Shown in pieces: positions 899 through 34,820 of a stretch of DNA of 64,000 nucleotides. Position 1 is the stretch's first letter. Each line of letters starts with the position of its first letter. The translations under genes and the position numbers were made by a program. The stretch is taken from the NCBI GenBank assembly GCA_010405405.1, contig MU004231.1, positions 3,156,401 to 3,220,400 on the forward strand. The letters run 5' to 3'. The notes below the pieces were generated by a model. It was not told where the DNA came from and searched no databases. It saw only the letters and a program-made list of their open reading frames with translations. The stretch is from Microthyrium microscopicum. Taxonomy: Eukaryota.

Positions 899-1393
899 CG
901 TGTGCTAGTGAGTCCAGCAATCCTTACATTTCAATATCCAAAGGGGTCCTCCAATGGTTGGGGGAATCCAGGCAACGATCAGTAGTTGACGTAGACAGTA
1001 TGCTTCAGGTTAGCGAGCTCTTTCATGCTCATCACCAAACCTTCTTCAAATAATATCCACCGTAGGCAAAGACTTGCAAAGCAATGCATTAAAGAAGAAC
1101 ACTTTTTCGTGTAGTATCATAGCACTAAAAGCTGTTACACACCAATACACCATGCCTTGCCCTCAAAGCCTCATAGCCATTACACCTTTAGCATCTATCG
1201 CCAAATTCCATGCTAATCATCACGTCGTGCTCGTCTTATCATTCACATACTTCAACGTCCGCAGTACCATACACATCAAATCGATCAATGCCATAAGAAC
1301 CACGGATATCCTTTCCCAACATGATTTTTGTGGCAACACAGTCGTTAAGACTATTCGTATTGCTTATGACCAAACGCTGCTATCGCAACAGGA

Positions 1394-3778
1394 CTACGCA
1401 CTGTCTCGCTCTCGGAACTTTGCGCGCTGGTTTGGAGGGACATAATTATCGCGATCCGGTTTTCGGTGCTTGGGACGAGAAGATCTATTGGCAAGAGCGA
1501 GTTGCATAGAAGCATCCTCTAGTCGAACATCGCGAGACAAATTGCCAACTTGAGCAGATCGTTGCGGTCGTAGAGGCACTTGAGCAGAAGTGCCAGTGTC
1601 TCCACCATCGACTTGGACCGCTTGACCGCCATTTTGAGCGACAAGGCTATTGTCTTGAGCAGGTGGATGAACATTTGGCTGCATCAGTTCAGCAACGTCT
1701 GGGATAGTACAACCTTGATATGAGATGGTAAAGCCACGGGCTTGCAGTCCACGAATCTCTTCAGCCACTTGGTCGTCATCTTTCTCATCAGGGTGAGGAC
1801 CGTTGCGACTATGCAAATCATCGTTTCCAGCTGGTGCGCGTACATCTCGTCGATCCCGAGGAGTATAGTTATCTAGTGGTATCGACACCACTTGCTCCTG
1901 TTGAAGTATTCCTCGAGCAGGACGATTGTGGTTTCTAGTTGCTTGGCTTAGACGAAGTCGAGGAGTAGTATTGTTTCCTGGTGGTGTGGGCACCACTTGC
2001 TCCTGCTGAACTACTTCCTGAGCAGGACGATCACGATTTCCAACCCGCTGGCGGTTGTCTCGTCGATTGCGAGGCGCCACGTTGCCTACATGAGCTGGTG
2101 CTCCGAATCGCTGTCCATTTGTTGATTGGGCAGGTAGATCTGTACCGTGCGCTACTGGCGCAGTGTTGGCCTTTTGGGTAGTTGTTATATCGGTAGCCCA
2201 TTTCGATTTCGACATTTCATTGGCAACTCGAGACGTAGGAGGATTGTTTGCATCAACCACCGGAGTAGCCCATTTCGACGTCGATAATCCGTTTGAATCT
2301 CGAGTAACAGCGATGGTCGCAGGGAAAGTTTTTGCCTGCACCTTCGAGGTAGCCCATCTTGATGTTGAGACTCCGTTCGCAGCTTGAGTAAGATCGTCAG
2401 AAGAAGGAGGCGCATCTACAGCCTCTGGAGAAGCCAACTGAGTAGGAACGACTGTATCCTGAGCTTGTAAAGTGACTTTCGCCATTTCGACAGCAATGCC
2501 ATTTGCACCTTCAGAGGCAGCCATTGGGGCGAGCAGAGCCGTAGTCATGACCTGAGCCGATAGACAACTATTGGTCCCATCAGGCTTGGCAGTCTCTCCG
2601 CTGGTAATAGCCTCCTGGGTTGGAGGAGCCGTATTTTCGTTTGGTGTGCTATCATTGGCAGTTTCGACAGGTTTGCTAGCCTCACTCTCGGCGGGACGAC
2701 GGCCACTAACAGCGGGAGCTTCTTGACTTAGAGAATCCGGTTGCTCGCAAACATCGTTGCTAGTCGACATAACATGTCGAATGTCGTTACCATCAGAAAC
2801 TCCTTGAGTCACGGGATTAGGTTGACCATTGGTTTCGTCGGATGCTGGGAGATCAGTTTCGCCTGTAGCTTCCACTGGAGCGGAAGGAGTCATTACTTTA
2901 GCTGTTGTAGCAACAGTGACTGTTCCGATAGCCTTGCCAATCTCATTCTTCGTATCTTGTCCTTGGGGAGCAATAGATTTAGCCCGAGCTAGGTCGTCGA
3001 GGTAGCCCATCTCGAACGCCAACTCGGCCTCCTCTGCCCAGTCGATTGCCTGTGGTTCCATGCTTATTTGGGTAGCTACATTGTGAGGAAACTTATCAGA
3101 CGATGGTAGCTCTTGGGCGGGCGCCTCGGGATTTGCTTCGGCGGAAGGACTATCAATTGGAGGTGACTTCTGAGTACACGCCTCGATCGCAGCAGCCTTC
3201 TGTGCGGCCTGTCGAATTTCGCGATCTTTTGCCACCATTTCCGCAGGCATTAGAGACTTGTCTGCCCATTTAGAAGCAAATATCGAGAGATGGCCATCTC
3301 GAACACACAGGTCCAACGCGGCGGCCAGAGGGGCTCCTCCACGTGTTGTAGGCTCTACTGCAGCGGCGTGCTGGGTGACCAAAGGAGGTATCGCAGGTCC
3401 CATTGCCGATTGAGATGACCCATTATTTGGTCGAGGCTGGCGTTGGAGATTAGATCTGGCGTTGTTGTGGTTCTCCCCGTGGCGGGCACGATTGGTTTGG
3501 GCATTATCGTTGTTCTCGTTGCGGCGGCCGCGCTTGGCTTGGTCGTTGGCGTGATTTTCGTCGCGGCGACCACGATTTTGCTGGCTATGGGCATTATATT
3601 CGTTGCGGCGATCACGATTGGCTTGGCTATTGTTGTAGATCTCGTCGCGGCGAGCACGATCAGGTTGGCTATTAGCATTGTTCTCGTCGCGGCGACCGTG
3701 ATGGTGTTGGCTATTCGCGCTGTTGCCATCGCGGCGACGATTGTGCCAGACATCGCCGTTTTTACGACGCTCCTCCAT
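1394..3778 (-). CDS. Hypothetical disordered protein, paralogue 1 of tandem triplet (794 aa)
   Basis: Long uninterrupted ORF. Shares the core MGPAIPPLVTQHA…LDLCVRDGHLSIFASKWADKSLMPAEMVAKDREIRQ with the ORFs at 4824-6974 and 8133-9668. TATA box and 5'-UTR intron upstream. Confidence 0.85.
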   Translation of the reverse strand: MEERRKNGDVWHNRRRDGNSANSQHHHGRRDENNANSQPDRARRDEIYNNSQANRDRRNEYNAHSQQNRGRRDENHANDQAKRGRRNENNDNAQTNRARHGENHNNARSNLQRQPRPNNGSSQSAMGPAIPPLVTQHAAAVEPTTRGGAPLAAALDLCVRDGHLSIFASKWADKSLMPAEMVAKDREIRQAAQKAAAIEACTQKSPPIDSPSAEANPEAPAQELPSSDKFPHNVATQISMEPQAIDWAEEAELAFEMGYLDDLARAKSIAPQGQDTKNEIGKAIGTVTVATTAKVMTPSAPVEATGETDLPASDETNGQPNPVTQGVSDGNDIRHVMSTSNDVCEQPDSLSQEAPAVSGRRPAESEASKPVETANDSTPNENTAPPTQEAITSGETAKPDGTNSCLSAQVMTTALLAPMAASEGANGIAVEMAKVTLQAQDTVVPTQLASPEAVDAPPSSDDLTQAANGVSTSRWATSKVQAKTFPATIAVTRDSNGLSTSKWATPVVDANNPPTSRVANEMSKSKWATDITTTQKANTAPVAHGTDLPAQSTNGQRFGAPAHVGNVAPRNRRDNRQRVGNRDRPAQEVVQQEQVVPTPPGNNTTPRLRLSQATRNHNRPARGILQQEQVVSIPLDNYTPRDRRDVRAPAGNDDLHSRNGPHPDEKDDDQVAEEIRGLQARGFTISYQGCTIPDVAELMQPNVHPPAQDNSLVAQNGGQAVQVDGGDTGTSAQVPLRPQRSAQVGNLSRDVRLEDASMQLALANRSSRPKHRKPDRDNYVPPNQRAKFRERDSA
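3470..3745 (-). repeat. Coding tandem repeat, ~39 nt/13 aa (N/R-rich, NANSQxxRxRRDE-like), ~7 degenerate copies
   Basis: Recurring tcg(t)cgcggcga/cgttgcggcg units on the + strand; visible in the translated N-terminus of the 794-aa ORF. Confidence 0.8.
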
Positions 3779-3985
3779 CTTATTTCGTTAGTTTATTGTA
3801 CCATTTAGACACTCTTCGTGATTGCTTACTATTTGTGTTGGTTTGGTTTGCTGATAGTTGGTCGATTTGTTGGATGGCTTTGGATGAGCAATAGAGAGAA
3901 AATCGAACAGTGCTTAGTTTCGGGCGTGGGAAAAGGTTGGCGAGGAGAGAAATGAGGTCCAGGAAGCAGAAGAAGGCAAATAAGG

Positions 3986-3993
3986 TATATATA
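3986..3993 (-). promoter_or_regulatory. TATA box of paralogue 1
   Basis: TATATATA followed (minus sense) by a pyrimidine-rich tract. Equivalent TATATA upstream of paralogues 2 (7184-7189) and 3 (9875-9880). Confidence 0.55.
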
Positions 3994-4104
3994 AGGACCG
4001 AGTAAGGTGCTAGCTCAGTAAGAGGTGCTCAGTGACTGTCACTTTCCTCACCTCACTGGCAATTTTCACGGGCTAAATGGCCAGCAACGAATAATAACAG
4101 GACT

Positions 4105-4217
4105 TCACTACCTTAAGAATGGTATGAGGTGCAATTGATACGTGTGGCGTTGTCAATATACCTCAATATCAAGCTGGAGGTGGAAATGAGCGAGTCTGAA
4201 CCATATACAGAAAGCGG
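4105..4217 (+). ncRNA. Conserved upstream block copy 1: candidate structured ncRNA or shared cis-regulatory module
   Basis: Collinear motifs ACCTTAAG…CAATTGATA…CCTCAATATC…GGAGGTGG…TCTGAACCATATAC…GAAAGC are shared with 7277-7400 and 9961-10085. CTACCTT(4108-14) pairs with GAGGTGG(4177-83), TGAGGTG with TACCTCA, and ATTGATA with TGTCAAT. Confidence 0.4.
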
Positions 4218-4823
4218 AAACAACAACATTTTTGACAAGCGCTCTGCGCCTGTCACATAGGTGATGGTACCAAAGACTTATACGCTCGGTAGCGAAGGCA
4301 TCAGGTGCCTTGATCAACATTTTGATAGGACTGTTACAACAGATCTCGGACTTTCATATTGGTGCGAGCTAACAGTAATGCCTTCACGAAGGACTTATCA
4401 GATACCTTAACGATTACTAGTACATTCTTGACCTTTATACTTGGTTTGTTTGCGAAAGCAAATCATTAAAGTCTCATTATTTCTAGCAAAGCTCAGCAAA
4501 CCTTTCGGTTTGGCTACCTAGGTAGGTAGCTAGGTACAAACACTTTTTCTGGCTGATGCCCGGCTTGTTATAGCTGGCGATCTCAACTCATCACTTTTCT
4601 TTTTGCGGGAAGTGGACAAACCGGTAGGTTGACGTCCGTTTTCCAGTTCTACGTTCTTCTTTCCTCGTTCTTACTTGGGCAATGTTCATCCCTAACCTTT
4701 TTAAAAGTTCATACCCCACATTTTGCTTTCTCTACCGATCTATCCTCATGATGCTGAATAGCGATTCACGATCCACACGCTGATAACAGCGTGATCATCA
4801 TACCAGTTTTCGATTACCCAAGG

Positions 4824-6974
4824 CTATAAGGACTTTGTGCGCGTATGTCGAGGAATGTACACCTGGGCATCTGAGCTTGGCTGTCTAGGTTGGGAGTTTT
4901 GCGGATTTTGGACAGACTCAATGGCGACGTCTCGATTTGCACGGTGAGAAGTGGTATTGAAAGGTTCGGACGGAACTGGACGCGCCGCAGTTGCTTCTTG
5001 TGTAGAGCATTCCACCCGATGTAGATGATTGAGACGGCCCTGACCCTGATTGCCTAGACGATTTTGTTGAGCCTGGTTACGATGGTGTGCTGGACGACCT
5101 CTATGACCCTGATGATTTGTGAAAGATTGTTGGCTCTGATGGGTAGGGAAAGCTTGTTGTCCCTGATGACTAGGTTGGGCTTGTCGGCTCTGATGAATAT
5201 GGAAAGCCTGTTGTCCCTGGTGAGAAGTGTGACTTACTTGGCTCCGATGAGTTGGGAAGGCGTGTTGTCCCCGATGATCTGGCCAAGCTTGTTGTCCTTG
5301 ATGAGTTCGGGAAGCTTGTTGACCCCGACGAGTGGGCCGAGCTTGCTGACCATGATGAAATGGGGAGCTTTGCTGACCCTGGTGAGTCGGCCGAGCTTGC
5401 TGACCAAGATTTGGACGAGCTTGATGGCCTCCATGGATTGATTGAGCCTGCTCGTTGTGATTGAAGCGGGTTCGTTGGCCACTCTGATTTCGAAGAGCTA
5501 GAGGTTCTGCAGAAATAATGGCCGTAGCACTTATATCATGTGGTCGAGACTCCTGTCGCGTGTCACGATCATGAGGAGTCAGCATAGCGGAAAGAGTGCC
5601 CGAGGCAGAGTTTGGTGTAGCAGTCATACCTGGCCGTCCAGATTGCGCATTACGATGGTCAGCAGTGGTCATTATAGCAGGTGTGCTCGGCGCTTGTGCC
5701 CATCTCGAACTCTCTATACCTGCGGAGGCACGAGGAGCCACATCTTCGGCAGGGCTAGACACTGCCTGAGGCTTTTGGATGGTGACTAGAGCATCAAGTT
5801 TAGGCAAGTTTGCCCACCAAGGTGCTTGAACGCGATTCTCTTTGACAGTGACCGTGGCTGGTAATGCCGGCAGATGTGTCCACCAAGGGTCCTGCGCGAT
5901 GACTCGAGCTTGGAGCATGATGTCGTCAGAAGAACCAGGAGCCGCCTGATGTTCTATAGTAGAGCCTACTGAAGACATTTCGAGAGAGTCTGCCCATGAT
6001 GGTTGCTCTACGTTGGAAGACACTCGAGTAGTCGTGCTGTGAGATGGATCAGCTGCTGCTTGATCCTCCTGGGGAGCCGCCTGGCCTTGGACAGATGTTT
6101 CTTCGGGTGATGATGAAACACCGGAGAGGGTTGCAATAGGCGGCGCTTCTAGTTGTTGAATAGTCTTTATAGGTGGCAAGTCTGGGTCATCTGCCCATCT
6201 CGATTTTCCTACTTCATAGAGAGCTTGAGTCGTCTTTTCAACAGAAGTTTCAAGCGATGTTTCGTGCTTTTGACCATCAAGTTGAACTGGAGGAGCTATG
6301 CTAACAGCTGGAAGTAGATTGGTAGCACCCAGCATAACAGACGGCATAGTGGCAACAGGCTCTGGTCGTTTTTGGTTCTTCTCGCGCTGTTGCTTCACTT
6401 CACGGTCTTTGGCAGCTATCTCGGCTGGCATCTTTGACTTATCTGCATACTTGGAGTCCCATATTCCAAGATGTGGATTTCTAACGCATGAGTCCATTGT
6501 GTCTACCAAATCAGCTCCTGCTCGAGTAGTGGGTGGTGGTCCAATGGGAGCGTGGCCAGTGACCAGCGGAGGTCTCACTGGACCCAGTGCTGCTTCTGAG
6601 GTGGGATCTTGAGCTGGCGCTCGGTGGCTAAGATTAGCTTCGTTCAAGGTACGACGGAAAACATGGTCGTTGCGGCGGTAGGAATTTGCGCCGTTGAAAT
6701 TACTGCCTGTGTTATTGTTGCGAGGACCACGGCCGCGATGGTTGACATTTGTTTCTTGAGGGGCGGGAGGTACAGATGGTGCTCGGAAGGCAGGATTACG
6801 GTCGACAGACGTCTGGTCAGGTACATTGCCAATATGATTGGAGTTGTTGCTGTTTCGACTGAAGTTGTCGCCAATTTGATCGAAGCTGCCGTGGTTATTG
6901 GTGTTGTTGCGAGCACCGCGCCCACCATTACGCCTATATCGCCAGTGACCGTTATTGTTGTGGCCGCTCGCCAT
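4824..6974 (-). CDS. Hypothetical disordered protein, paralogue 2 of tandem triplet (716 aa)
   Basis: Long ORF with the core LGPVRPPLVTGHA…MDSCVRNPHLGIWDSKYADKSKMPAEIAAKDREVKQ, SRWA motifs and C-terminal YIPRHTR. Confidence 0.85.
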   Translation of the reverse strand: MASGHNNNGHWRYRRNGGRGARNNTNNHGSFDQIGDNFSRNSNNSNHIGNVPDQTSVDRNPAFRAPSVPPAPQETNVNHRGRGPRNNNTGSNFNGANSYRRNDHVFRRTLNEANLSHRAPAQDPTSEAALGPVRPPLVTGHAPIGPPPTTRAGADLVDTMDSCVRNPHLGIWDSKYADKSKMPAEIAAKDREVKQQREKNQKRPEPVATMPSVMLGATNLLPAVSIAPPVQLDGQKHETSLETSVEKTTQALYEVGKSRWADDPDLPPIKTIQQLEAPPIATLSGVSSSPEETSVQGQAAPQEDQAAADPSHSTTTRVSSNVEQPSWADSLEMSSVGSTIEHQAAPGSSDDIMLQARVIAQDPWWTHLPALPATVTVKENRVQAPWWANLPKLDALVTIQKPQAVSSPAEDVAPRASAGIESSRWAQAPSTPAIMTTADHRNAQSGRPGMTATPNSASGTLSAMLTPHDRDTRQESRPHDISATAIISAEPLALRNQSGQRTRFNHNEQAQSIHGGHQARPNLGQQARPTHQGQQSSPFHHGQQARPTRRGQQASRTHQGQQAWPDHRGQHAFPTHRSQVSHTSHQGQQAFHIHQSRQAQPSHQGQQAFPTHQSQQSFTNHQGHRGRPAHHRNQAQQNRLGNQGQGRLNHLHRVECSTQEATAARPVPSEPFNTTSHRANRDVAIESVQNPQNSQPRQPSSDAQVYIPRHTRTKSL
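5085..5435 (-). repeat. Coding tandem repeat, ~27 nt/9 aa (HQGQQAxPT-like), ~12 degenerate copies
   Basis: Recurring gcttg(c/t)tg(a/t)ccctg(a/g)tg units; H/Q-rich repeat in the translation. Confidence 0.8.
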
Positions 6975-7276
6975 CTAGATTTTGTCCGTCTCCGGTATTT
7001 GGACTGAGAAAGATGACTTACTTTGCGTGTGAAGTATATTTGTGATGCGATGAGCGTGCGATGTGAGCTGATGCGGTTCAAGAATATAGAGTGGTTGAAG
7101 AGAGTATTGGCGGTGCGGAAAGGCGAGGAAGAGGTAGAGGAAGAAGAAGTGGAAGGCGAGGAGATAGAGAAAGGCCAAAGGATTATATACAAGGACGGCG
7201 ACTGTTAGAATCGAATCGAACCATCACTGAGAGGTTACTAGCGCCAATCTAACCGAACGAAAGCAAAACAAGCATA

Positions 7277-7400
7277 GGCTACCTTAAGAAACACATTCGG
7301 TCAATTGATATATAACGAGCGGCAGTAACGACTACTGAGAGCACCTCGATATCAGCCAGGAGGTGGCTGTTGTAGATGATCTAACCCATATACGGAAGCA
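7277..7400 (+). ncRNA. Conserved upstream block copy 2
   Basis: Same ordered motifs as copy 1. GGCTACCTT(7277-85) pairs with GAGGTGGCT(7360-68), TTGATAT(7305-11) with ATATCAG(7349-55), and apical CAGTA with TACTG. Confidence 0.4.
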
Positions 7401-8132
7401 GTATTCGGTCAACAGATATTCTACTCTTGGCCATCCGCTAGACCACCTGGTACTCGCTGGATATTCACAATGAACCGAGACAAACCGGCTTATAGGCCTT
7501 GGAGTATGCTCGTAAGACGAGAATCACATTATCCTCCGAAGCAAAGGCAAAATGAACCAGCTTCGAAGCTCTCATAATGATGTACCAGGGATATATTCGC
7601 TCTTTATGCTCCTTGTATGTTTGCGAGCTACCACAGTTTGCGCTGTGGTCAACGACTTCTAGTGGCAACTGGTAGATAAGGCTATTGACAAACAATCTCC
7701 TCAAACTATGTCAGACTTTTCGACGATGGTCTTCTGTCTTGGGCAGGCAATGTTTAGGTTAGTGTTCGACTTGCATTCATTCGATAAGGTAGGTCACCAT
7801 ATAAAATATGTATCCCAAGTTATATCGCGCTCTAGGTATCATCCAAGGTTGAAGACTTTTGACTTATTATATCATTATTTCGTACTGCCCATGCCTCGGA
7901 ACGACTGGTTCTTTCAGTTGGTGCTTCGCTTCACCTTTTCATATTCATCACACTCTAGCCGTCTATCAAGAAGTAACCTTTGATTGCAAAGACGCAGTTG
8001 CACCATCCACGAAGTTCTAGCCTTCTCTTTACCTCCATCATCCGAGGTGCTCAGATCATTCTTCGTCTTCCATTCCATGCCAATCATTGTAGGCCAATCG
8101 CCATCCCTTCATCGAATCCTTTCCCCTTGTCA

Positions 8133-9668
8133 CTACTTCTCTTCCTCTCGAGTCTGTGGAGGCATTTTCGGAGGAACGTAGACTGAAGCATTCGGTCTAC
8201 CTTGATTCTGTCGTCGACCTCCTGCCACAGGACCAGCTAACGCACCTTCACCTTGACCAGGAGCAGGATTTGAGTTGGCGTTCATGTTACGACGGTGAGG
8301 AGGTGGTGTCAGACGTCCCTGGCGATTTGTTTGGCGGGAGCGACCATAATTTGTAGTCTGAGATGGGTGGTTTGGCACTCGCGCAACGGCCGTCATAGGA
8401 GCGTTGGCATGAGGCTGAGCCATGTGAGGAGCTCGAGGCTGACGCTGCTGGCCTACTGCTTGGGCATGACGAGAAGTATTCACAGGCCGTAATTGGTTGT
8501 TGCGCTGATCTCGAGAGGTGTTTCTAGTGCCTTGAGTCAGATCGCTAGAATGAGCGGGTTGTGTATGCGGCGGCTGGGTAAAGCCTGCGTTGTTGCGAGG
8601 CTGGAAATGATAATCAGCGCCGTTTCGACGATGGAAGTGATTGTTGGCGTTCGTTGCAGGAGTTGCAGCTGCATGTCGTGAGCGCTGTTGCATTCCACGG
8701 TTCTTGTCGACAGTAACGGTAGGCGCATTTGCCCATCTAGACGCGGCGAGGCCAGTGGGACCTTGAGCAACAGGACCTTGAGTAACGGGACCTTGAGCAA
8801 TGGGACCTTGAGCAACGGGACCTTGAGCAGGCAAATCGAGTAAGGAGTCCGGAGGTTTGATGTCGGAATCCGCAGTAGCATCTGCCCCTCGCGAAGTCGG
8901 GACAAAAGGCGCAGCTTGAGCAGATAAGTTGCCAGTATAGAGAGCGAAGATCGAGTCCGATTCGATAGGTTCGTCCGACCATCTGAAAGATGCGGCACGG
9001 GAGGATGCGTGCACCGTCTCTCTACCCGAGACGCCAGGAACGTTGATGGTCGGCTCTTTGGTCTCGTCCGCTAAGCTCAAAGCAGCAATATCAGGGGAAA
9101 CTACAGCCGAGTCCTGATCGAAGGATCCAATCTGTGTCTGTGGCTCTGTAGAAGTCACATTGGCAGAGCTAGCTTCCGACTGAGATGACTTAGTAACGTC
9201 GACGAGAGGCGCGAGAGAAGCAGTTGGCTCAAGAGAAGCAACTGGTCTTAGAGAAGCAGTTGGGTCTGTGGGAGCTACAGGGTCCTTTGCAGCGACTGAT
9301 TCTTTGGGAACGAGTGGATCTGCTGGAACGACTGGATCTGTTGAAGTGGCGGACGCAGCCAGTTTCTTCGCTCGCTCCTGCTGAATCTCGCGGTCTTTGG
9401 CTACCATCTCCGCCGGCATCTTAGTCTTGTCGGCATACCTAGAGGCGAATATGCCTAGATGCGGGTCGCGCACACAGTTGTCCAAAGTCTCCGTCAAGGA
9501 CTCTCCTGTACGGATAGTTGGCGGAGGACCGGGTGGTGCGTGCTGGGTCACCAGAGGGGGCGTGGCGGGCCCCATGGTTGGTCGCGTATTTGGAGCTGGT
9601 TGATGATTTGAGTTGTCGGGTCGTTTCCAGTTGCGGCGGGTTGGCTTCTTGGTACTACGGTCTTCCAT
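8133..9668 (-). CDS. Hypothetical disordered protein, paralogue 3 of tandem triplet (511 aa)
   Basis: ORF with the core MGPATPPLVTQHA…LDNCVRDPHLGIFASRYADKTKMPAEMVAKDREIQQ, GLAASRWA and C-terminal YVPPKM. Confidence 0.85.
   Translation of the reverse strand: MEDRSTKKPTRRNWKRPDNSNHQPAPNTRPTMGPATPPLVTQHAPPGPPPTIRTGESLTETLDNCVRDPHLGIFASRYADKTKMPAEMVAKDREIQQERAKKLAASATSTDPVVPADPLVPKESVAAKDPVAPTDPTASLRPVASLEPTASLAPLVDVTKSSQSEASSANVTSTEPQTQIGSFDQDSAVVSPDIAALSLADETKEPTINVPGVSGRETVHASSRAASFRWSDEPIESDSIFALYTGNLSAQAAPFVPTSRGADATADSDIKPPDSLLDLPAQGPVAQGPIAQGPVTQGPVAQGPTGLAASRWANAPTVTVDKNRGMQQRSRHAAATPATNANNHFHRRNGADYHFQPRNNAGFTQPPHTQPAHSSDLTQGTRNTSRDQRNNQLRPVNTSRHAQAVGQQRQPRAPHMAQPHANAPMTAVARVPNHPSQTTNYGRSRQTNRQGRLTPPPHRRNMNANSNPAPGQGEGALAGPVAGGRRQNQGRPNASVYVPPKMPPQTREEEK
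8755..8830 (-). repeat. Coding 15-nt tandem repeat (AQGPV/I) x5
   Basis: ggaccttgag(c/t)a repeated five times at 15-nt spacing. Confidence 0.9.
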
Positions 9669-9960
9669 CTAGTTTTGTCAATCTGAGTTGTCAAGAGACG
9701 GCTTTGGGCGCTTACTATACGGATACGCAATATTTAGAACTTTCTGATCTGTGAATGCTATAAAGCGTTTAATCGAAGTCGGCGATATCAAAAGCTGGCG
9801 GAAAGGGTTGAAGAGGTGGTTGAAGGTGTTGAAGAGAAAGCGAAAAGTAAAGTAAGAGAGAAAGTCAAGCGGAGTATATAGAGGCTAAGAGAGGTAGGTC
9901 ACTGACAACTTTCGAGCCACAATGACCCAGAGCTAACCAAATGAAGCAAAGTCAGAACTG

Positions 9961-10085
9961 TTCACCTTAAGCAGAGTATGAGGTGCAATGAGGTAAATTG
10001 AGGTGCCGCGAGTGCGGTTATATAAGCCTGGATACTGGCATGGAGGTGGCCGATATATTCAGTCTGAGCCATGTCAAGAAAGCGA
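9961..10085 (+). ncRNA. Conserved upstream block copy 3
   Basis: Same ordered motifs (ACCTTAAG, GTATGAGGTGCAAT, CCTGGATAC, GGAGGTGG, AGTCTGAGCCAT, AGAAAGCG). TCACCTT(9962-68) pairs with GAGGTGG(10043-49) and AGTAT with ATACT; apical GCCGC-gagt-GCGGT. Confidence 0.4.
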
Positions 10086-11120
10086 TATTTACCCAGCAAG
10101 AGCTCACGTAGATGAGTTAGCTAGGTAAGTCTCATCGTAGGACTCCCACGAAATGCAAAGAAAACGATGTACTTGTGGACACCTGCAAGAGCAATATATG
10201 GTATGAATGGCATTGTCACTCTGGTTTATTGGGAAAGAAGGATCATCACAGATGCTTTGACGAGTATCCGCATGAGAGATTAAGTAAATAATCGCACCTC
10301 TCTGTGAAGGGAAACTGTTCAGTCTAGGTAAATCTCTAAGGTAGTCTTCATGTTTTCATGTCATAGCAAGACATACTTAGTTTGCGTCGTCTCAGCAACA
10401 TCGAGCAATTGATATGGTGTCGCTGAACGCAAACATTCTCTTCAAAGTATGCTAGACATCTCAAGGATATTCCTCTGTCTCAAGCAAACAGGTTCTCCGG
10501 TCCTTGTTCGACATGCTCATTCATTAGGTAAGTCCCCATTCATAAACTCTTCCGCTGTATAAGCCCGATGTGGGACATGTTTCCATATCCTGCCAATGTG
10601 ACATAATGCACGTAAGAACGCCACATGCCTTTCGAGGGAATGGTCAGGGAAGGATCGGGGGAGGAACTGGCCCTGATATCGGTGTGGATCATCGCTATTC
10701 GTCAGAGGAGCTTCGTAGGCCGAGAACGTGGTAGCTGGAGCTGCTGTTGTGGGCAAGACATGACAGCGAGAGCAATCGTTAGTATGAGGCCCTGGGAGGC
10801 GAGTATGCATGTCAAAGCGGCGTGGATATTGACACTTTATGATACAAAAAACTGTGTCTGTAACTTGTCTGCCATTTTAGATGTAGCGAAGTACGATCAC
10901 AGGCTTGCGGCCTTTCAGAACATCAGTCCATTATACAAGACTCGTGCTTCAGTTCTAAAGTGAATTATCCGTGATCACAAAAAAGGAGGCGCACATACGA
11001 TTTCCAAACAGGTGAGTATTTCGCATTCTTCGTGCTAGCAAATAACGAGCTCCGTCCCAAAACGTCCCGTTGCAATACATAAAAGAGTTTAGTGCCATTA
11101 ATATTACGTCCGTCCTACAA

Positions 11121-11887
11121 CTAAGCAAACACATGCACTGTTGTGCCTCCAGACTTCTTCCAGGTAGCAACAGTGACACCGCACTTGCCGCACTTGTGGA
11201 CAACGTCCTTGAAACCGTCTATTAGGTATGGAATGCATGGCATGAGGAGTACGAGGCAGAAACCGAGAGCCCAGAGACTAGAAAGACAGTTAGTTTATGC
11301 GCTACCACTTTATGATATGGTGTATCTTACTGTGTGCAGTCTCCACTGACGCGAGAAGTGTTGGTCATGCCTCTTTGCTTGCAAGATGGGCAATCTATGG
11401 GTGCGCTGGATTCTGAAAGAGTCTGGATTGGCACAGCGCTTTGGAAAACGGAGGTCTGTGGCTGCATCATCACTGGCTGTTGTTGCATCATGTGAGGTTG
11501 CTGGTACGCCATTTGTGGTTGTTGCTGCTGCTGCATCATGGGCTGCTGGTATTGTTGTTGTGGGTGCATCATGGGAGCACCAGTTGGATGACCTTGCATA
11601 GGTTGCTGAGCATACATAGGCTGCTGGCCTTGGGGATAGCCTTGTGGTTGCATTTGAGGGTGCTGCATCTGTGGTGGGTATTGGGGTTGCTGGGCCATAG
11701 GCTGTGGAGTGCCTGGGCCGACCTCAGTGACATATGCTGGTGGTTCTGGCGATGATTGTTAGTGATGATTCTCGCGATAATTTGCGACAGCGCGCAAGAC
11801 CCCTATTCAGCCTGATGAGAGTTTGAAAGTGAAATGGATGTCTTGCGCGTGCGATCATTTAGGAATATACTTACGAGCTTTCTCCAT
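11121..11887 (-). CDS. LITAF-domain zinc-ribbon protein (3 exons: 11887-11875, 11745-11331, 11277-11121)
   Basis: Spliced product MEKAQPPAY…Q/P-rich…APIDCPSC…HLWALGFCLVLLMPCIPY…KDVVHKCGKCG. Two CxxC knuckles flank a hydrophobic stretch and there is an N-terminal PPxY. Introns are canonical GT-AG with ctaac branch points. Confidence 0.9.
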
Positions 11888-12754
11888 TTTGAAACTTGTT
11901 ATTGATTATCGAAGTTAGTTGTATGTACGGACGTTATGTAACGAGTGTGAGGGATGGGGAGAAGTTGCAGAAAGTGGTGGTGGAGTTGGGTCCGACATAT
12001 ACTCTGGACCACCACGCTCGCACAGGAGAATAGAATTGGGTTCCAGCCATTGCGCTAGATAGGAGAAAGCCACGACCCTGAAGTCCGTAGAAAAACGAGG
12101 CTGAGGCTCGTCGCGAAAATGGTGTTGGGCGTGGTATTGACGACTGGGATTGGATGGAGTTGAGGACACTGGCCCCTTGCAGGCCTTTGCAGGACACTAC
12201 TGCTTCCCGTGAGCCTGGATTGGCTTGGACAAGCTCTCGATCAGCCACGCGATGGTGACAGGCGAATAAGGCTCCTATTAAGACGAGAGAAAGGAATATC
12301 CCAGCGCCTGCGTTATGCTTCCTTTGTTAAGACCGTTCGAGAACAGTGGAGGCATCACGCTGCCACAAATCGGGCTAGCCACAACCTCGTTGTACTCCTC
12401 AAGAGATCCCAAGACGTGCAAGTTTCGCGCTCGACCGGTCAAGTTGCTTAAAGAGTCAAACACTGCGCCCCTTTGCGTGAGTTGTGGATATGCGAAGCGA
12501 GAAGTTACAATTTTAATTTAGCAACACTTCTGCGGGGTGAATATGCACCTTCTGAACTGGTCTGTAGTCTTGCAATTCACTCGAGCGGCACGGCTGGGGG
12601 ATCCGACGTCTGTTCATCTTGATCTGGGCCCATTTGATTGAAACATTGATAAGCAGAAACAGATGATGGGAGATTGAATCTCATCAAATATTTAGTCAAT
12701 GAGATTCAGATAAAGCGCCCGTTTCACACCAAGATGCGGCTGAATGGACAAGTA

Positions 12755-14548
12755 ACGTGCCTCACCCAGATCTCGGCCTACCCAGATCTCAGCCACCCCA
12801 AAAAGGAATTTCAGAAATAAACACTGTAGCATAACACAACCAAAACACAATATAATTAAATAATTTAAATTGATAAATTAAGCTTGAGTTTAATGCCTAA
12901 ATCTGCCTTTTTTAGTTTTTTAATAACTCTTGCTAATACAGTTAAAATATTGTTTAACTAGTTTATAGCATAGTTAAGCATAATCTAATTCTTATCGTCC
13001 ATTTTAGCATTATAATTTCTCTTCTTTCTTTAAGCTTATTTAGAAGTAGCAAATAGCATAGCTACTTAGCTTTAAAGAGAAATTACTTGTTATTATAAAG
13101 CATAGTTCTTTACAAAGATCTAGCTTAATTCTTACTAAACTAAGCACATAATAACTCGCTTTAATCTTAGTATAAATAGAAGCCTTTCCAAAGCTAGAAT
13201 TAAAGCCAAAAAAGTCAAAATAGGTATATTTTATATAGGAACTAACTCTTAGGAATTTTCTATTATCTTAGGGATATGTTATAAGACTATATATTGATTA
13301 ATAGGCTAAATTCCTATTACTATAAATAATAAAACGATATTTACCTTTATAAAAGCTAATTTCCTTGCTTCTATATATATTTAAATAAAGATTCTTTTCT
13401 AAATTAGTACTAAAGAAGATTTAAGAAAAGAATAGTTAAGTTAAGTTAAAAATTTGCGTTTTAAAGGTCCAAAAATGTTAACATCTAATAGCTACGTACG
13501 ATAAGAAGAATATAGCAATAAATAGACTAATTAGATATAGTTAATAATATATTTAAAGCGAAACTTAGGCGTAGCATAACTACTATGATTATTATAGATT
13601 AAAATTTACTATTCCTTAGGATTTAAAGGGGCGGTTTACAATATAAAGATAAGATTAAGCTAGTCTTTGCCTAACTAATTTAACGTCTAGCTATTAGTCG
13701 TAGTAATAAAACGATACTTTAAAGATTTAAGTTCTATACGTAAATTTAGTAGGAACTAATAATCTAAGATAGATTTACCTTTATAAATAGCTAGGAAAGA
13801 TATAAGATCTCTAAGAGTAGAGATTATCTCTAAGATTAAGATATTCTTATAACTACTATTCTCTATAATAAAATAGTTACCTTTCTTATAGTTTTTAGTA
13901 GTCTACCTACTTACTATAATTACTTCTTTGCTAGAGATTCCTAAGCACATTCTAGTCTCGTTAAAGTTATAAATATTAGCTAGTTTAACCTTAAGGGATA
14001 AAATTACTCTTTTAAAATAATTAAAATAGTTATTAACAGCATTAAAAGTAGTATCATTAACTCTTTATTTATTAATTCAACGAGCTAGAATACAAACGAC
14101 TTTAGGATTTCTTTATTTAAATAATTAGATCTAATTTTAGCCTAAAAAGGCACTTAGGATTCGCTACTAAAGAATGCCTTAAGTAAAATCTTTAATTTAA
14201 ATATATATAGAAGTACAACTAGCTAATTCCTCACTTTTAATTTAGTTATAAACTTTAGTTTTCTTCGTAATAGAAAGTTTTTAATATAAGGAATATAAGG
14301 TTTTATATAACTCTTATCTAGCAATTTAATCTTAAAGAGTAGATCTTAGAACTCCGTAAGCTTTAGCTACTACACAAACGGACTTATATTCTTAATTTTC
14401 TAAAGCTATAATAGCAGCTTAGATGTCTTCCTCATTCACTATTTAAATTGCAAAAGAAACGCATTTAAATTAGTAGAGTTACAGTAGTATTTAGTTATTT
14501 AGAAAAATGGCCGAGAAGTGGGTTGGCCGAGATCTAGGTAGGGCACGT
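12755..14548 (-). mobile_element. RIP-inactivated Fot1/pogo-type (Tc1/mariner) DNA transposon, 1794 bp
   Basis: ~41-bp imperfect TIRs starting ACGTGCC, with TA duplications at 12753-54 and 14549-50. Minus-strand relic motifs: HTH (AKAYGVLRSTL), YNFNET (from YNFDET) and *LLDVNIFGPLK (from QPLDVGIFGPLK). AT-rich with TAA/TAG stops. Confidence 0.92.
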
Positions 14549-27490: not shown

Positions 27491-28735
27491 CCTAAGCCAG
27501 TTCGTGGTGGAATGTGTGGTGGTAGGGGCACATTTTGGTGTTTCGCCGCAGCTAATCCCTGAGCTGTGAGGGCTTCAAAAAATGGTATTTTTGGCTATTT
27601 AATAAAGAGGATTAGGGGCGCCCCCTAAAATTAGTTATAATATTAGCTACTAACAGCTAATATTAGCTGTTAGTAGTTAAAATAGCTACTATCTGAAAAT
27701 GCGTTATTTTCAGCTACTGTGAGATAATCTAGCTCTTTGAAAATATAAAGGGTTAGATAACGTGATCTAGCACGTGACCATCACGTGACACGGCACGTGA
27801 TCACAATATTAAGATCTAGTAATTCCTAGATCTTAATATTACGTGTTGAATACTATGGATTTAAATAGCTCAAGTAGCTGCTGTAGGATAATCTAGCCCT
27901 TTAGATGTGAAGGGTTAGATAACGTGATCTAGCACGTGACCATCACGTGACACGGCACGTGATCACAATATTAAGATCTAGTAATTCCTAGATCTTAATA
28001 TTACGTGTTGAATACTGTGGATTCAAATAGCTTAAGTAGCTGCTGTGGGATAATCTAGCCCTTTAGATATAAAGGGCTAGATTTGAAGCTAGTCCTAGAT
28101 TGGTCTAGCTTCACGGACTTAAGGCTCTTAAGTCCTAAGCTACTTTGTGGTGGAATGTGTGGTAGTAGGGGCACATTTTAGTGTTTCGCCGCAGCTAATT
28201 CCTAAGCTGTGAGGGCTTCAGGGGATCGTATTTTTGGCCTTTTTAAAAAGGGGATTTTAGGCTAATAGTAGCTATAATATTAGTTACTAGTAGCTAATAT
28301 TAGCTGTTAGTAGCTAAAATAGCTACTATCTAAAAATGCGTTATTTTCAGCTACTGTGAGATAATCTAGCTCTTTGAAAATATAAAGGGTTAGATAAACG
28401 TGATCTAGCACGTGATCATTACGTAACAGGGCACGTGACGGCACGTGATTACAACATTAAGATCTAGTAATTCCTAGATCTTAATATTGCGTGTTAAATA
28501 CTATAGATTTAAATAGCTCAAGTAGCTACTGTGGGATAATCTAGCCCTTTAAATGTGAAGGGCTAGATTTGAAGCTAGTCCTAGATTGGTCTAGCTTCAC
28601 GGACTTAAGGCTCTTAAGTCCTAAGCTACTTTGTGGTGGAATATGTAGTAGTAGAAACACATTTTGGTGTTTCGCTGTAGCTAATCCCTAAGCTATAAGG
28701 GCTTTAAGAGATTGTATTTTTGGCTACTTTATAAA
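27491..28735. repeat. ~485-bp tandem repeat (2.3 copies, first with internal 162-bp duplication) rich in CACGTG and palindromes
   Basis: Unit starts cctaagc…tggtggaat at 27491, 28134 and 28620. The CACGTG/palindrome sub-unit occurs at ~27750, 27912 and 28387. Confidence 0.9.
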
Positions 28736-29275
28736 AAAGATAAGAATTTAGCTAGGATTCTATGAGATTAGTGATTATGCCTACTAATTTTTATAGTAAT
28801 TCTAGTTAATTCTTAAGTAAATTCTGTTCTTAGCTATAGTTTAGAGATATATTTACTAAGTCTTAAATTTTTAGAGATTAGATATATTTCTACTAGATTT
28901 AGCGTTAGCTAGACTAGTTACTATAAACTAGACCTAAGTTTAGGATAGTTTATTATTAAGTTGGATTTTATATATAGCTTATAGTTAGTATAATTATAAA
29001 GCTTTATATAAGAAGTAAATAAGAATCTACTATCTAGCTAGTCTAATAATATTAGCTACTAGATTACCTCTAAAACTCTTTTAGAGTCTTTAGTAAAGAA
29101 TATAATATATTTCTTAGTTTACTCTTTTAGGGTGGCTTAGAAACGAATATTTATATATTTTTAAAGAAATACTTTTTATATTAAAAAGTTATTTTCTTTT
29201 TATTAAATTAATTTATCTTTATTCTATTTTCTTTATTATATTATTAGATAATATAATAAATATTAATTTACTCTA

Positions 29276-29496
29276 CTACCTAAGTAAGTAGTAAAACTAC
29301 TAGAAGGTTAAAGTAGTTTAGTTCTACTTAGATAGTTAGTCTACCTAAGTAAGTAGTAAAACTGCTAGAAGGTTAAAGTAGTTTAGTTCTACTTGGATAG
29401 TTTAAAGTAGTTTAGTTCTACTTAGATAGTTAGTCTACCTAAGTAAGTAGTAAAACTACTAGATGGTTAAAGTAGTTTAGTTCTACTTAGATAGTT
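29276..29496. repeat. 65-bp tandem repeat (~3.4 copies) inside the large transposon
   Basis: ctacctaagtaagtagtaaaact…gttctacttagatagtt starting at 29276, 29341 and 29435. Confidence 0.9.
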
Positions 29497-32299
29497 TATA
29501 CTTTGTTTTAGGTATACTTTATATATTTTATAAAGTAGAACTTTAATAAATTATATTTTAGTCCTTTCTACTTACGTTAGGTAATATTTATTTCATGTTA
29601 AAATATAGGTAAATATTTCTAAATAAGAGAGACTAATAGAATATAATACTAAGCCAAAATTAAATAAAAAGCGTTATTAGGGCGGTATAGCATATAGGGC
29701 GGCATATTAATCTAATTTATATATATTTACTATAAAAGATAGCGAATTAGAGCTAGAGTAGTCACTAGACGTTATTTATAGCTTCTATAAGAATATCTTG
29801 CTTATCCTTATTAAAATAGTAATAAAGATTGGGGCGGCCTATCTTTTAAAAAATATAGTTTAATTATTTATTTCTATTTATCTTATTAGTTACTAGATAT
29901 ATACTTTCTATATTAAGTATCTTTTAATAAAAATATATAGACGATAAACGTATATTATTATTGTTAGGATAATTAGTCTATATAGCTTTCAGCCTATTAG
30001 TAGATATATTAATCTTTAGTATAAAAGCTTTTATAGATTAAGTAGGAGAGTGGTAAGCCCCTTATTAACTTATTTCTTATAGAGTAAAGCTAGTTTTAAT
30101 ATAAGGGTAAGCTACTTTCTAAAAGGGAAGTATTATACTTAGAGAAAGGGGATATTTAGTCTTTTAATAGTGTATCTATTTAGTATTTATTACTACTACG
30201 TAGTACTTTATATTAGTAGTAATAAAGCTAATCTTAAGGTCTTACGTGCAGAAGTTAGTAATATAAAGGCTCTTTTTATTAAGCTTAGTAATAAATACTA
30301 TATAATTATTACTTTAAAAGCTATAAGTACCTTTGTCCCTTTTTACTCTTAAACTTTGCTACTTTAAACCCTTCTATAAGTTAGGTATAAATTATTACTT
30401 TAATCTATCTAGAACCTATAGCGTGTACTAACTTAGGAGTACTATAATAGATAAGACTTACATATAAGTATACTAAGACGTTTACTAACTCTAGGATTAA
30501 TTTAATAAGCTCTTCTTAAATAATGATTTATTTAGTATAATAGGCTAAGGTATAGATCTTTATAGAAGAAGGTAAAAGCCTAAGATAGCTTAAGCTAACT
30601 TGTACTTTTAAGAATAGTTATACTATGCTTACTTTAAATTATTCTTACGTTCTTAGTAAGTTAGAGAGCTAATGAAAATAACTATATAATTAATCTCTAT
30701 TACTAGTAATAGTAGATAAAGTTAGATTCTAGTAGAGTTCGTTAACCCTAGAGATTTTCTAGACTACTAATTAGCTCTCTTAAAGCGACTAGCCTATCTA
30801 GGTTAGGCTTAGATTCCTAAACGCTAGATTATTATGCGTGCTCCTTTAACTTCTAAAGCTTTATACTCTAGACTAGATTTGCTATTAATTATTATCCTAG
30901 ATAGCTTCTAAATATCTTTCTCTTTTATGGATTTCTTATCTTTACCTTTGCCCTAGCTATTCCCTCCTAGCTTCCCTTTGGCTATTCCCCTTTAGCTATT
31001 CCCCTTTGGCTATTCCCCTTTAGCTATTCTCTCTAGCTTTACCTTGTTTCTTAGCTCTTCCTTTCCCTTTTCTTTCCTAGTCTCTTTATCTTCTATTATT
31101 CTTTGTAGATTTGCTAGTAGTTAAACTATAAAATGTAGACTATAGAATCTTGTGGCACTGTTTATAGGTATGCCTAGCTATACTAAAAAAATGATTTATT
31201 AATAGTATATGCTAGATATAACCTATAATTATACCTCCTTATATAATTTCTTAGTCAGAGAAGAGTATTACTTAGTTCTTAGAGCTACTACTAATAAAGG
31301 AAGTCTATTTTAAGATAGTATATTGCTTTCTATGACTCCTTCTATAAATAGAGATATAGTATACTGTAGATAAGTTTGCTAATATAATTAGTAACTAATT
31401 AAACTAGCTTTAAAGGCAAATATATAAGTTATTCTATAGATAACTAAAAAAGATTCTCGTACTTCATGAAAATGAGATAAAAGACTTAATATATAGAGAA
31501 CTCTAACTTTTAGTAGTAGTTATTAATATGCAAAATCTATTCCTCTACTTTTATTAATTACTTCTTTAGAATAGGCTTCTTTGTAATTAACTTCTTTGCT
31601 ATAGGCGTCTTTATAGCCTAAGGATCCTTCTTTTTATAAGGTTCCCTTAGTCCTCTCTTCTAAATAACTTTTATAATAGGCTAAAGATTTGGATTAAACT
31701 TTACCTAATTAGTAGGACTTGCTAATTAAGGATTTTGTTACTAAGAAGGATTAGGTTTCTAAGACTAATTATCCTTCTTCTTGCTACGACTCTTCTTTAG
31801 GACTTAAATAGAAGAATAGTAATTTATGGGGGGAGAAAGTCTGTTCTAATAGTTAAAGTTTGCTTAACTCTAATATTAAGGAATAGGTTGGTGCTACCCT
31901 TCTTAAGTTTGATCTGTTAGTTAAGCTTTATACTAAGTTGAAAAAGTAGAAATAGATTAAGTATAAATAGTCTAATATTAATTCTAAGACAAAGAGTAAG
32001 ACTAAGACGGAAGTAGAGATTAAGGATAAGCAGTCTGAAACGGAAGCTAAAATAGAGGCTAAAATAGAGTCTAAACTAGAGCTATAGCCATAGAAGGATC
32101 CATGTATTATAAAGGCTCTAATTCTATATACTTAGAGTCAAATTTAAAGTTAGAAGAAGAATTAGCTTCTTCTTCTTGTTAATTTAAGTAATTATTAACC
32201 TCTTCTTTATTAGCCTAGTTAGCGTAAAATAAAGGAATACTCTTTTCTTTTTTAATCTTTATCTCCTTAGGAGGATTTAAATCGTTAGAATTGTTCCTT

Positions 32300-33600
32300 A
32301 GTAGTGGCATTAATCTCTAATCTAACAAATTAATATTACTAGTAGCTATTCCTTTTACTAATATAAGATAATCTTCTAAGCTATCTAGAGTAATGTTGAT
32401 TTTAGTATAAGTGAAAGAACGCTTCATAATGTTATATTTTTGGTAAGTTTGTTAAGTATGAGCCTTTTCCTACGCGTAAGTAACTATTTTAGTTAAGATG
32501 ATACGTTTTTTGCTTACAATAAGATTGTAAAAATCCTTATTTAGATACGCTTTAAAAGCAATTTCGTCTTAATATTCCTAAAGGTACTTCTTAACAACTT
32601 AGTTAATACTAACGTCTAAAGGTTAGATCTTAGCTATTAGTCTAGGGATAATAACTATAAGAATAATGCTATATGCACAATAGTGAGCCTTAACTTCTTT
32701 AGTTATATAAAACGCTATAGAGTTAATAATAACCTTTAACGTTAGCTAAGAAGGTATAGGCTACATTAGTAAGTAAATTTAGCTAGTAGAACTGCTATTA
32801 GACTTTGTAAGTTTAGTAGTAGTAAAGACATAAGCTTCATTACCTTAGGAATTAAAGCCCGTACCACGTTCTAAAGGATAAGTTAGAATAAAAATAAATT
32901 TAAAGAAGAGTATCCTTACCTTAAGCTTATTAGTAATATTGTTCTTGCTTAAGTTGGTGCCACTTAGAATCTACATAAGGAACCTATTAATCTTCAATCT
33001 ATAGAATAATTAGGAATAAATTTATCTAGGTAGTTTTGTTAAACTTTATAATAACGCGTTTATCGTAAAGAAATCCCTTAGCAACTTCGTTTTAACCGCA
33101 ATATTTAGTAGGTAATCCATAGAATATAATCAACGGTTTTATAACTATCTTCTTGTTAGCAAAGGCCCCTAAATGTACCGTCATTAATCGTTTCTCTTGT
33201 CTGCTTCTAGAAATAGCATAAAATATATTGTTTAATCCTACTAGGTAATAGGTGTAGCTAGGTATAGTTTCATATACGTAAGGAGTTTTATCGCTATTTA
33301 TAATAAAATGAGTAGGGATTTAGGTATGTACCTCTACTCTATAGCCTATAGGAGTAACTAACCTAGTATAGCATTGCTAATAAAAAGAAATAAAGCGATT
33401 GATAAATTGTTTCTAATCCTAAGGAAGGTTTTGGCCTATATAGGTTATCTTTCGATAAGAAATCTAGTAGCGTTTTTAAAACCTTATAAGCTAGCTTCTT
33501 AAAAAGTAAGGTCTTTAAGGAATAGCCTATCTAGATGCTATAAGGGAAGCATATACTAGAAGCCATTGTTAAGTAGCCTCTCTAAAAAACTAGCTAGATG
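32300..33600 (-). pseudogene. RIPped CENP-B-HTH + DDE_1 transposase core
   Basis: Relic motifs S*LIRF*KRY*ISYRKIT (CENP-B HTH, GWLxRF), NSDKTP (from NxDETP), EKRLMTVHLGAFAN, KI*PLDVSIN and KRSFT…LDSLED (from PDGSED). Intron 32919-32871. Confidence 0.85.
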
Positions 33601-34820
33601 AAATTTTTTGGTTCTCTACAAGCTAAATAATGAACTAGTAATAGATTATAGATTCTAAGTCTAGAAAGTGTTCTCGTTCTATATTAAGTTCTATTCTCCT
33701 TAGGTTGCTAGTAATATATTTAGCCTTATCTCACTTTTTCTACTAGCGACAGACTATAGATTTGTTAACCAAAAAGTAGTTACTTACTTCCTTAAATGTT
33801 GTATATTGTTATAATTGCTTAGTTACTAGATCTTTAAAGTATCCAAGCTCTAGACGTAAATGTGGAATTTGCCTTTTGTATAGCTAAAGGACGTAGTGTT
33901 TATGAATTATCTATCCTAGGATTTTAGTCCGTATAGTAATACTATATATCTTGAAAGCTCTTTTTTTTAGGGCAGAGCAGTTAAATTTACTATCTTAACT
34001 ACCAAATTCTTTAGTAGTCTTTTTATATTTAATAAAGTAACTTTGCCTTACCTAAAGGTTAGCCTTTTTAGTATCTATTAATAGATTTTGCCTTAGAATT
34101 AGTCCTTGCTCTAATATCTTTAGTTAATTAAGTTCTTTTATTAGTAATTTATATATATTTTCTATGTATGTAGTTAAGTTTGTAGTTTAATTAAGGCTAC
34201 GAAGTCTTTAGTTTATTAGTAGCCTTTCCTATAGCTTTCCTCTCTGTATTGCCTTTTTACTAGTAATTTAGCGTAGCTAAGTAAGTTACTAAATCTAGTA
34301 TACTAGTTATGGGATGTAATTGTCCCTTTTGTAAAACCAATATGTGATTATAAAGAGTAGTGCTACGATCTATAATTGGTGAAAATTATTATTGCACTAA
34401 ACTAAAAGAGGCTAATTAATGTTGTATCTGAAGAATTCTCTGCGGTACTTACCACTTTCCATCCAACCACAACATCAACTCCCTCAACTTCTGCCCGCTT
34501 CTTCCTCCACCACAATCTTCACTTCATCTTCCTAGAAATCTTTCTTTTCTCTCATTACCTCCTTCATAACCCCTCCAATCCCCACCTCCAACTTGCTGAG
34601 GCCCTCTGACGTACTGCGCCCACTAGTGCCTCTCCCGCAACTTCTCGATTCTGTGCCATCAGCCAACACCACATTCACTGAACCACTCACAATCTCGCGA
34701 TTCTGAAAAGTCATTGGATCAATTTACACGCCGTTTCTCTGCTTCTCTTCCCTCCTCTTCCTCTCTCCTCTACTGTTCCTTTCGCTTCACTCTGGTCCAG
34801 CTGGCACCGGCCACCTGAGA

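Follow-up and report, generated by a model that had tools for sequence, protein, structure and literature searches.

A conserved element upstream of three tandem paralogues of Microthyrium microscopicum: a candidate cis-regulatory module with plus-strand hairpin potential

A TATA box followed by a pyrimidine-rich tract is typical of filamentous-fungus promoters, and the upstream activating sequence (UAS) modules of fungal RNA polymerase II (Pol II) genes are among the closest described systems for a conserved non-coding element that occurs three times in Microthyrium microscopicum, once upstream of each of three tandem minus-strand paralogues (g1, g2 and g3; Table 1). The stretch analysed, hereafter the window, comprises 64,000 nt of assembly GCA_010405405.1 (contig MU004231.1, positions 3,156,401 to 3,220,400 of the forward strand) and is numbered from its first letter. 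As in fungal UAS modules, the element lies 80-220 nt upstream of the TATA box, consists of short invariant words at fixed local spacing that are conserved amid randomised flanks, and includes a word found again in either orientation and outside the aligned positions of the copies. We give about an even chance to the reading in which the element is a DNA-level cis-regulatory module retained by three anciently duplicated paralogues. On present evidence it is a feature of an ordinary kind with an unusually neat architecture.

The original prediction, made from the letters of the window alone, had described three copies of about 110 nt that fold as a strand-specific hairpin, a candidate non-coding RNA (ncRNA) divergent from each paralogue. 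All three copies were found where it had placed them, and the shared blocks were located in each. Five blocks stand in one order in 3/3 copies: ACCTTAAG, GGT.CAAT, CCTSRATA, GGAGGTGG and TCTNNNCCAT..GAA(A)GC. Spacing within each arm is exact throughout, with 18 nt from ACCTTAAG to GGT and 15 nt from CCTSRATA to GGAGGTGG, and the middle between the arms is variable (33, 45 and 45 nt in copies 1, 2 and 3). On the gene strand of g1-g3 the TATA box is followed by the pyrimidine-rich tract, with the main ATG ~210 nt below. The element lies beyond the TATA box in all three, as had been claimed, and starts 111, 87 and 80 nt away from it (copies 1, 2 and 3), so that the predicted distance of 85-120 nt is corrected to a measured 80-111 nt. 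The pattern GGAGGTGG-N8-20-TCT-N2-4-CCAT has three matches in the 64-kb window, and 0/100 shuffles gave any. No fourth copy was found in the window by blastn or by a covariance model, which returned the three copies plus one match with E = 2.4 and placed every element copy beside a paralogue. Two metagenome matches came from a DNA pattern built on three of the element's blocks, neither similar beyond the required letters.

A blastn comparison of the three units with one another recovered nothing beyond the conserved coding block, the element blocks (83-88% identity over 24-26 nt) and, between g2 and g3, an additional non-coding block. No flank was aligned, in agreement with the claim that the flanks diverge around the conserved blocks. 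Four-fold synonymous sites between g1-g3 are saturated, those in codons of identical residues agreeing in 6/27, 8/27 and 6/20 cases between paralogues, and at the DNA level the element reaches 53-62% identity vs 50-55% for the best coding block. Because the element is conserved while these sites are saturated, it has been kept by purifying selection and is no neutral remnant. Similarity left over neutrally from duplication or gene conversion, with a hairpin that arose by chance, would fit the existence of three copies only and the shortness of some similarity blocks (24-33 nt); against the saturated synonymous sites, the five collinear blocks with exact spacing in every copy and the failure of any shuffle to match the two-block pattern, it is extremely improbable.

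No conserved open frame was found at the element on either strand. A small plus-strand gene downstream of it was considered from the ATGs at 7708 and 10449, whose peptides begin MSDFSTMVFCL and MLDISRIFLCL, and was ruled out: the frames diverge after ~13 residues, their lengths are 91 and 37 amino acids, and g1 has no counterpart. The element as an upstream exon was likewise ruled out, as no conserved splice sites flank it.

The words that pair in the hairpin are examples of a single one, GAGGTG/CACCTC. It occurs 47 times in the window, and 10 of these fall in the three 482-nt upstream intervals vs 1.06 expected (binomial P = 8e-8; the word was chosen after inspection, so this value is post hoc and indicative only). 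Four of the ten upstream words stand where the copies do not align with one another (4022, 4049 on the opposite strand, 9813 and 10000), and nowhere in the 64 kb is RAGGTR denser than in the g1 and g3 promoters. In copy 3, GAGGT words follow one another at 9980, 9990 and 10000 in direct orientation, a 10-nt period that equals one DNA turn. What copy 1 has in their place is an imperfect palindrome of 17 nt (TGAGGTGCAATTGATA / its complement), and copy 2 has TGATAT words in both orientations. The same words turned over in different arrangements are typical of binding-site clusters, and a conserved helix predicts none of this. Between the TATA box and copy 1, further RAGGTG words lie outside the aligned element (Table 1), and GAGGTG..CACCTC there (4022-4054) encloses a perfect small palindrome, AGTGAC-T-GTCACT (4031-4043). 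This small palindrome has a partial counterpart in copy 3 (GGTCACTGAC), and copy 2 lacks the stretch. Some bases are invariant yet unpaired in the hairpin, namely AAG of ACCTTAAG, the first G of GGAGGTGG and all of block E, the last of the five, which suggests sequence-specific recognition.

We read the element as a cluster of transcription-factor sites because GAGGTG recurs at non-aligned places and with a 10-nt period; the same two observations give direct support to the alternative that the original prediction had mentioned beside its RNA. A selected non-coding sequence lies upstream of a core promoter and holds a homotypic word cluster that does not depend on alignment. Such a UAS-type module would have been kept above the TATA box and pyrimidine-tract core promoter of each paralogue. 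It would comprise arm 1 (ACCTTAAG-18 nt-GGT.CAAT), arm 2 (CCTSRATA-15 nt-GGAGGTGG) and a third block (TCTNNNCCAT..GAAAGC), the arms being built largely from RAGGTG, which occurs in either orientation, together with words of the TTGATA type. The readers of these words would be one or a few sequence-specific DNA-binding proteins, through which g1-g3 would be co-regulated; we infer both the protein binding and the co-regulation. The plus-strand hairpin potential would then be a by-product of oppositely oriented words, its G-U pairs coming from the degenerate purines of the word. If the element is a site cluster, it offers a clean case of a promoter module surviving in paralogues with saturated synonymous sites, and the words RAGGTG, ACCTTAAG and TCTNNNCCAT are a handle for the regulator of an orphan disordered-protein family.

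The G-U pairs had been offered as proof of a plus-strand RNA, an argument that finds no support here. A RAGGTR word with a degenerate purine, present in both orientations, yields U-G pairs on one strand and C-A on the other, and this one-strand asymmetry arises without any RNA.

Several observations weigh against a cis-regulatory module, of which the first concerns the factors that would read it. No transcription factor can be named for the words of the element, and no known factor's site was matched, unlike the case of described UAS modules; a literature search for a fungal factor binding GAGGTG/CACCTC returned matches that were all on plants. CreA (SYGGRG), GATA, CArG and PACE-type sites were compared with the blocks, and none fits all three copies. 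The site of yeast Zap1 is ACCTTNAAGGT. The related zinc-response motif of Aspergillus fumigatus ZafA has the core 5'-CARGGT-3' and the 15-bp consensus DYYVYCARGGTVYYY (PMC6070888). The element shares an AAGGT/ACCTT core in block A (TAAGGT on the gene strand), which is clustered and in both orientations, and g2 is rich in histidine/glutamine. A ZafA/Zap1 zinc-response element was rejected: the essential core C is T in 3/3 copies, and the other words are GAGGT, with two core mismatches. The resemblance is a lead only and confers no membership.

The remaining points against it come from folding and from transcription. The hairpin was examined by single-copy folds (over the predicted intervals and trimmed to the hairpin), an RNAalifold consensus and shuffles, all on three sequences only. 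Unlike in known UAS modules, the layout of the words permits a nested plus-strand hairpin in 3/3 copies, beyond what block-preserving nulls yield. The plus-strand consensus has 19 pairs in two nested helices at -13.71 kcal/mol, with -4.75 on the minus strand; column shuffles reach the plus-strand energy in 1/500 cases (z -4.35) and that of the minus strand in 81/500 (z -1.03). When 30 windows on both strands were scanned across an alignment of 1 kb of upstream DNA, the outliers were the two plus-strand windows over the element (z -7.12 and -4.39), all other windows lying between -1.77 and +0.91 (60 shuffles each). In the consensus, 52/57 cells pair (91.2%), a figure reached by 11/500 shuffles, and slid controls give 36-51%. 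Two pairs run through A-U, G-U and G-C, and four change on both sides, with a covariation score that 21/500 shuffles reach. Column shuffles destroy the words, and in the nulls that keep the five blocks intact (400 trials each) the consensus energy of -13.7 is reached by 2.0% of trials when only the spacers are shuffled, 1.3% with block order shuffled, 0/400 with orientation flipped and 0.5% with both. The spacer shuffle already has a mean of -10.5, so the conserved blocks as such account for most of the consensus energy. Hairpin potential on the plus strand is thus more than a trivial by-product, within the limits of three sequences and a structure derived from the same data. In addition, some kind of transcript covers copy 1, as described below. 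The claim of a strand-asymmetric plus-strand hairpin therefore holds for the consensus, in the RNAalifold comparison, the upstream scan and the block-preserving nulls alike.

These data would also fit an element that forms the structured 5' part of a plus-strand ncRNA, whose transcription would lead away from the paralogue and might begin in the same TATA region. Selection would then act on a 75-90-nt hairpin in which a closing helix of 7-10 bp is followed by a 6x6 internal loop, an upper helix and a tip that varies between copies, and the RNA would influence the adjacent promoter in cis or yield small RNAs. Besides a consensus structure specific to the plus strand, such an RNA can call on the closing helix (CUACCUU/GAGGUGG or UCACCUU/GAGGUGG) that all three trimmed copies form, on one-sided changes at paired columns that keep pairing through G-U, on a small stem of its own in each variable tip, and on the strandless RNA-derived contig over copy 1.

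Single copies tell less for it. Folded over the full intervals, copies 1, 2 and 3 have z of -4.22, -0.57 and -1.72 on the plus strand and -1.10, +0.60 and -0.57 on the minus strand. Trimmed, copy 1 reaches -30.8 kcal/mol on the plus strand (z -5.90, 0/300 shuffles as good; minus strand z -3.25, 2/300), copy 2 has z -1.54 (26/300; minus strand +0.63, 211/300) and copy 3 has z -1.49 (24/300; minus strand -1.48, 19/300). Folding is thus much better than in shuffles in 1/3 copies only (copy 1), and the expectation that the element outfolds its shuffled controls holds for the consensus and not for copies 2 and 3 taken singly, with z of only about -1.5. The predicted closing helices are present in the minimum-energy folds of copies 1 and 2 and absent from that of the full 125-nt copy 3, where UCACCUU pairs with a nearby GAGGUG instead; trimmed copy 3 forms 6/7 of the closing pairs. 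Column shuffles break dinucleotides and so overstate significance, covariation from three sequences is thin, and the GAGGTG words outside the helix and the direct 10-nt triplet of copy 3 are left unexplained by a hairpin. A plus-strand structured RNA is in our view doubtful; if real, it would be one of few fungal cases in which a promoter-antisense RNA has a conserved structure.

Described RNA classes resemble the element in part. In H/ACA small nucleolar RNAs (snoRNAs) an H box (ANANNA) links two hairpins, and an ACA stands 3 nt from the 3' end. In copy 1 a hairpin with an internal loop is directly followed by AAATGA, an ANANNA word, and later by ACA; AGATGA stands in copy 2 and no such word in copy 3, just as had been described. 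The suggested kinship with H/ACA RNAs finds no support all the same, as there is no conserved H or ACA box (copy 3 has neither), only a 3-4-bp UCU/RGA stem in place of a second full hairpin, and no Rfam match. The Rfam search at E<=10 gave seven weak matches in 3700-10500, none of them overlapping the element (0/7) and all far below gathering scores. Compared with fungal microRNA-like loci (PMC9757828), the element is likewise an intergenic stem-loop (76-88 nt here), and copies 2 and 3 differ in their irregular, weak stems. A transcript over the promoter-upstream DNA of an expressed paralogue would fit the yeast cryptic unstable and stable unannotated transcripts (CUTs and SUTs) and the mammalian promoter upstream transcripts (PROMPTs), for which we know of no conserved secondary structure.

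Contigs of a sequencing run carry three canonical intron-skipping joints, from which it follows that the run derives at least partly from spliced RNA. One strandless contig, 999-4607, runs unbroken and collinear over g1 with its TATA box, over copy 1 and for another 390 nt; copies 2 and 3 and most of g2/g3 have no contig of this run, and they were counted neither way. A contig across two features is no proof of one transcript. Its continuity through the TATA box into g1 fits read-through on either strand better than a separate divergent start, which alone would not give that. In a more specific form of the RNA reading, each paralogue would have been duplicated together with a ~500-nt divergent plus-strand ncRNA whose 5' end is the 76-88-nt hairpin and whose far end lies at the second conserved block (~4607/7745/10486); acting in cis, it would set how active the shared TATA region is or in which direction it works. 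We hold this to be unlikely; if true, a filamentous fungus would have a promoter-antisense RNA that is structured and maintained by selection.

The same contig allows the element to lie inside a minus-strand sense transcript that starts upstream, near the second conserved block (~4607 in g1), and reads through the canonical promoter. This long, poorly translatable leader isoform would modulate use of the TATA promoter, the blocks serving as its promoter-proximal signals in DNA or RNA. In its favour, contig 999-4607 matches g1 collinearly with no gap at the TATA box and stops at a point that aligns with the second conserved block upstream of g2 and of g3. The stretch also holds 11 minus-strand ATGs above the main start, a feature of undecoded leaders such as the yeast long undecoded transcript isoforms (LUTIs). 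A minus-strand consensus fold no better than chance, the single contig's inability to prove a single transcript and the unexplained conservation of the five blocks make this quite improbable. Minus-strand ATGs are absent from the main ATG up to points at or in the element (4204, 7224 and 10041 for g1, g2 and g3), the one exception being that at 3804, 26 nt ahead of g1's start codon, and are frequent above these points. The productive mRNA start is therefore most likely below the element, which speaks for the DNA-level module. The odds that remain after the DNA-level module and the alternatives weighed here fall to something outside these readings.

The second non-coding block upstream of g2 and g3 (Table 1) contains the words GGTA(A/G)GT and CAAACA, and its counterpart in g1 (~4536-4632) is weak. 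The end of the g1 contig (4607) and the start of another contig (10512) fall at or beside it, and for this reason the block may mark a transcript boundary or a second promoter.

Table 1. Positions of the paralogues, promoter features, element copies and further conserved blocks in the window
Feature	Position	Strand	Details
Paralogue g1	1394-3778	minus	intronless open frame, 794 amino acids
Paralogue g2	4824-6974	minus	intronless, 716 amino acids; exact sequence in public protein collections
Paralogue g3	8133-9668	minus	intronless, 511 amino acids; exact sequence in public protein collections
TATA box of g1	3986-3994	minus	conserved in alignments; pyrimidine-rich tract on the gene strand next, ~3900-3985
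TATA box of g2	7184-7190	minus	conserved in alignments
TATA box of g3	9875-9881	minus	conserved in alignments
Element copy 1	4108-4215		upstream of g1; hairpin span 4108-4183; third block TCTNNNCCAT starts 4195, GAA(A)GC ends 4215
Blocks of copy 1	4110-4215		ACCTTAAG 4110-4117, GGTGCAAT 4128-4135, CCTCAATA 4161-4168, GGAGGTGG 4176-4183, TCTGAACCAT 4195-4204, GAAAGC 4210-4215
Additional RAGGTG words of copy 1, not within the aligned element	4004-4054		AAGGTG 4004, GAGGTG 4022, CACCTC 4049
Element copy 2	7279-7399		upstream of g2; hairpin span 7279-7366; third block TCTNNNCCAT starts 7380, GAA(A)GC ends 7399
Blocks of copy 2	7281-7389		ACCTTAAG 7281-7288, GGAGGTGG 7359-7366, TCTAACCCAT 7380-7389
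Element copy 3	9962-10083		upstream of g3; hairpin span 9962-10049; third block TCTNNNCCAT starts 10063, GAA(A)GC ends 10083
Blocks of copy 3	9964-10072		ACCTTAAG 9964-9971, GAGGT words 9980/9990/10000, GGAGGTGG 10042-10049, TCTGAGCCAT 10063-10072
Second non-coding block	7689-7805		upstream of g2; 71% identity over 120 nt to 10430-10546
Second non-coding block	10430-10546		upstream of g3

The three paralogues are tandem open frames within the first 12 kb of the window and form an orphan family of long, predicted-disordered proteins. Their overall identity is 26-27%, and they have in common a ~65-residue block (PPLVTQHA..CVRDPHLGIF..YADKSKMPAEMVAKDREI) and repeated S(R/K)WA motifs; g2 ends in an H/Q-rich repeat tail. 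For g1, unlike g2 and g3, public protein collections hold no letter-for-letter match. The family looks lineage-specific from the searches made: tblastn found no further member in the window beyond g1-g3, Pfam matched 0/3 proteins, and a profile of the ~65-residue block run at E<=0.001 against 1.84 billion representatives returned g2 itself and a weak match to a 5185-residue protein only. No orthologues came from word-indexed searches with g1 or with residues 25-115 of g3, and a protein-pattern scan of metagenome contigs gave 353 pattern matches, none of which was confirmed. The Atlas model of g3 is disordered (predicted local distance difference test, pLDDT, 0.40), and residues 248-257 of g3 contain a PAM2-like word, LSAQAAPFVP, an Atlas lead that scores 0.75, under its own bar.

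In the leaders of g1-g3 (3779-3830, 6975-7025 and 9669-9720), AGTAAGC/AGTAAGT stands on the gene strand ~45-50 nt above the ATG; CTTACT is invariant on the plus strand, and AG directly precedes the ATG. These signals look like those of a ~47-nt intron in the 5' untranslated region (5'UTR). At the candidate intron of g1 the RNA-derived contig is collinear across, i.e. unspliced.

Elsewhere, a tRNA scan of the window found 0 genes, and the window contains no rDNA. G+C falls to 0.28-0.35 at 28001-34000 and 12001-14000 vs ~0.48 in the rest, and these two stretches could be repeats degraded by a repeat-induced point mutation (RIP)-type process. The contigs define a GT..AG intron at 908-998, just past the stop of a plus-strand frame that ends at 898. 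From 11031 onward a minus-strand gene with high contig cover has introns at 11278-11330 and 11746-11874 and encodes a Q/P/M-rich protein.

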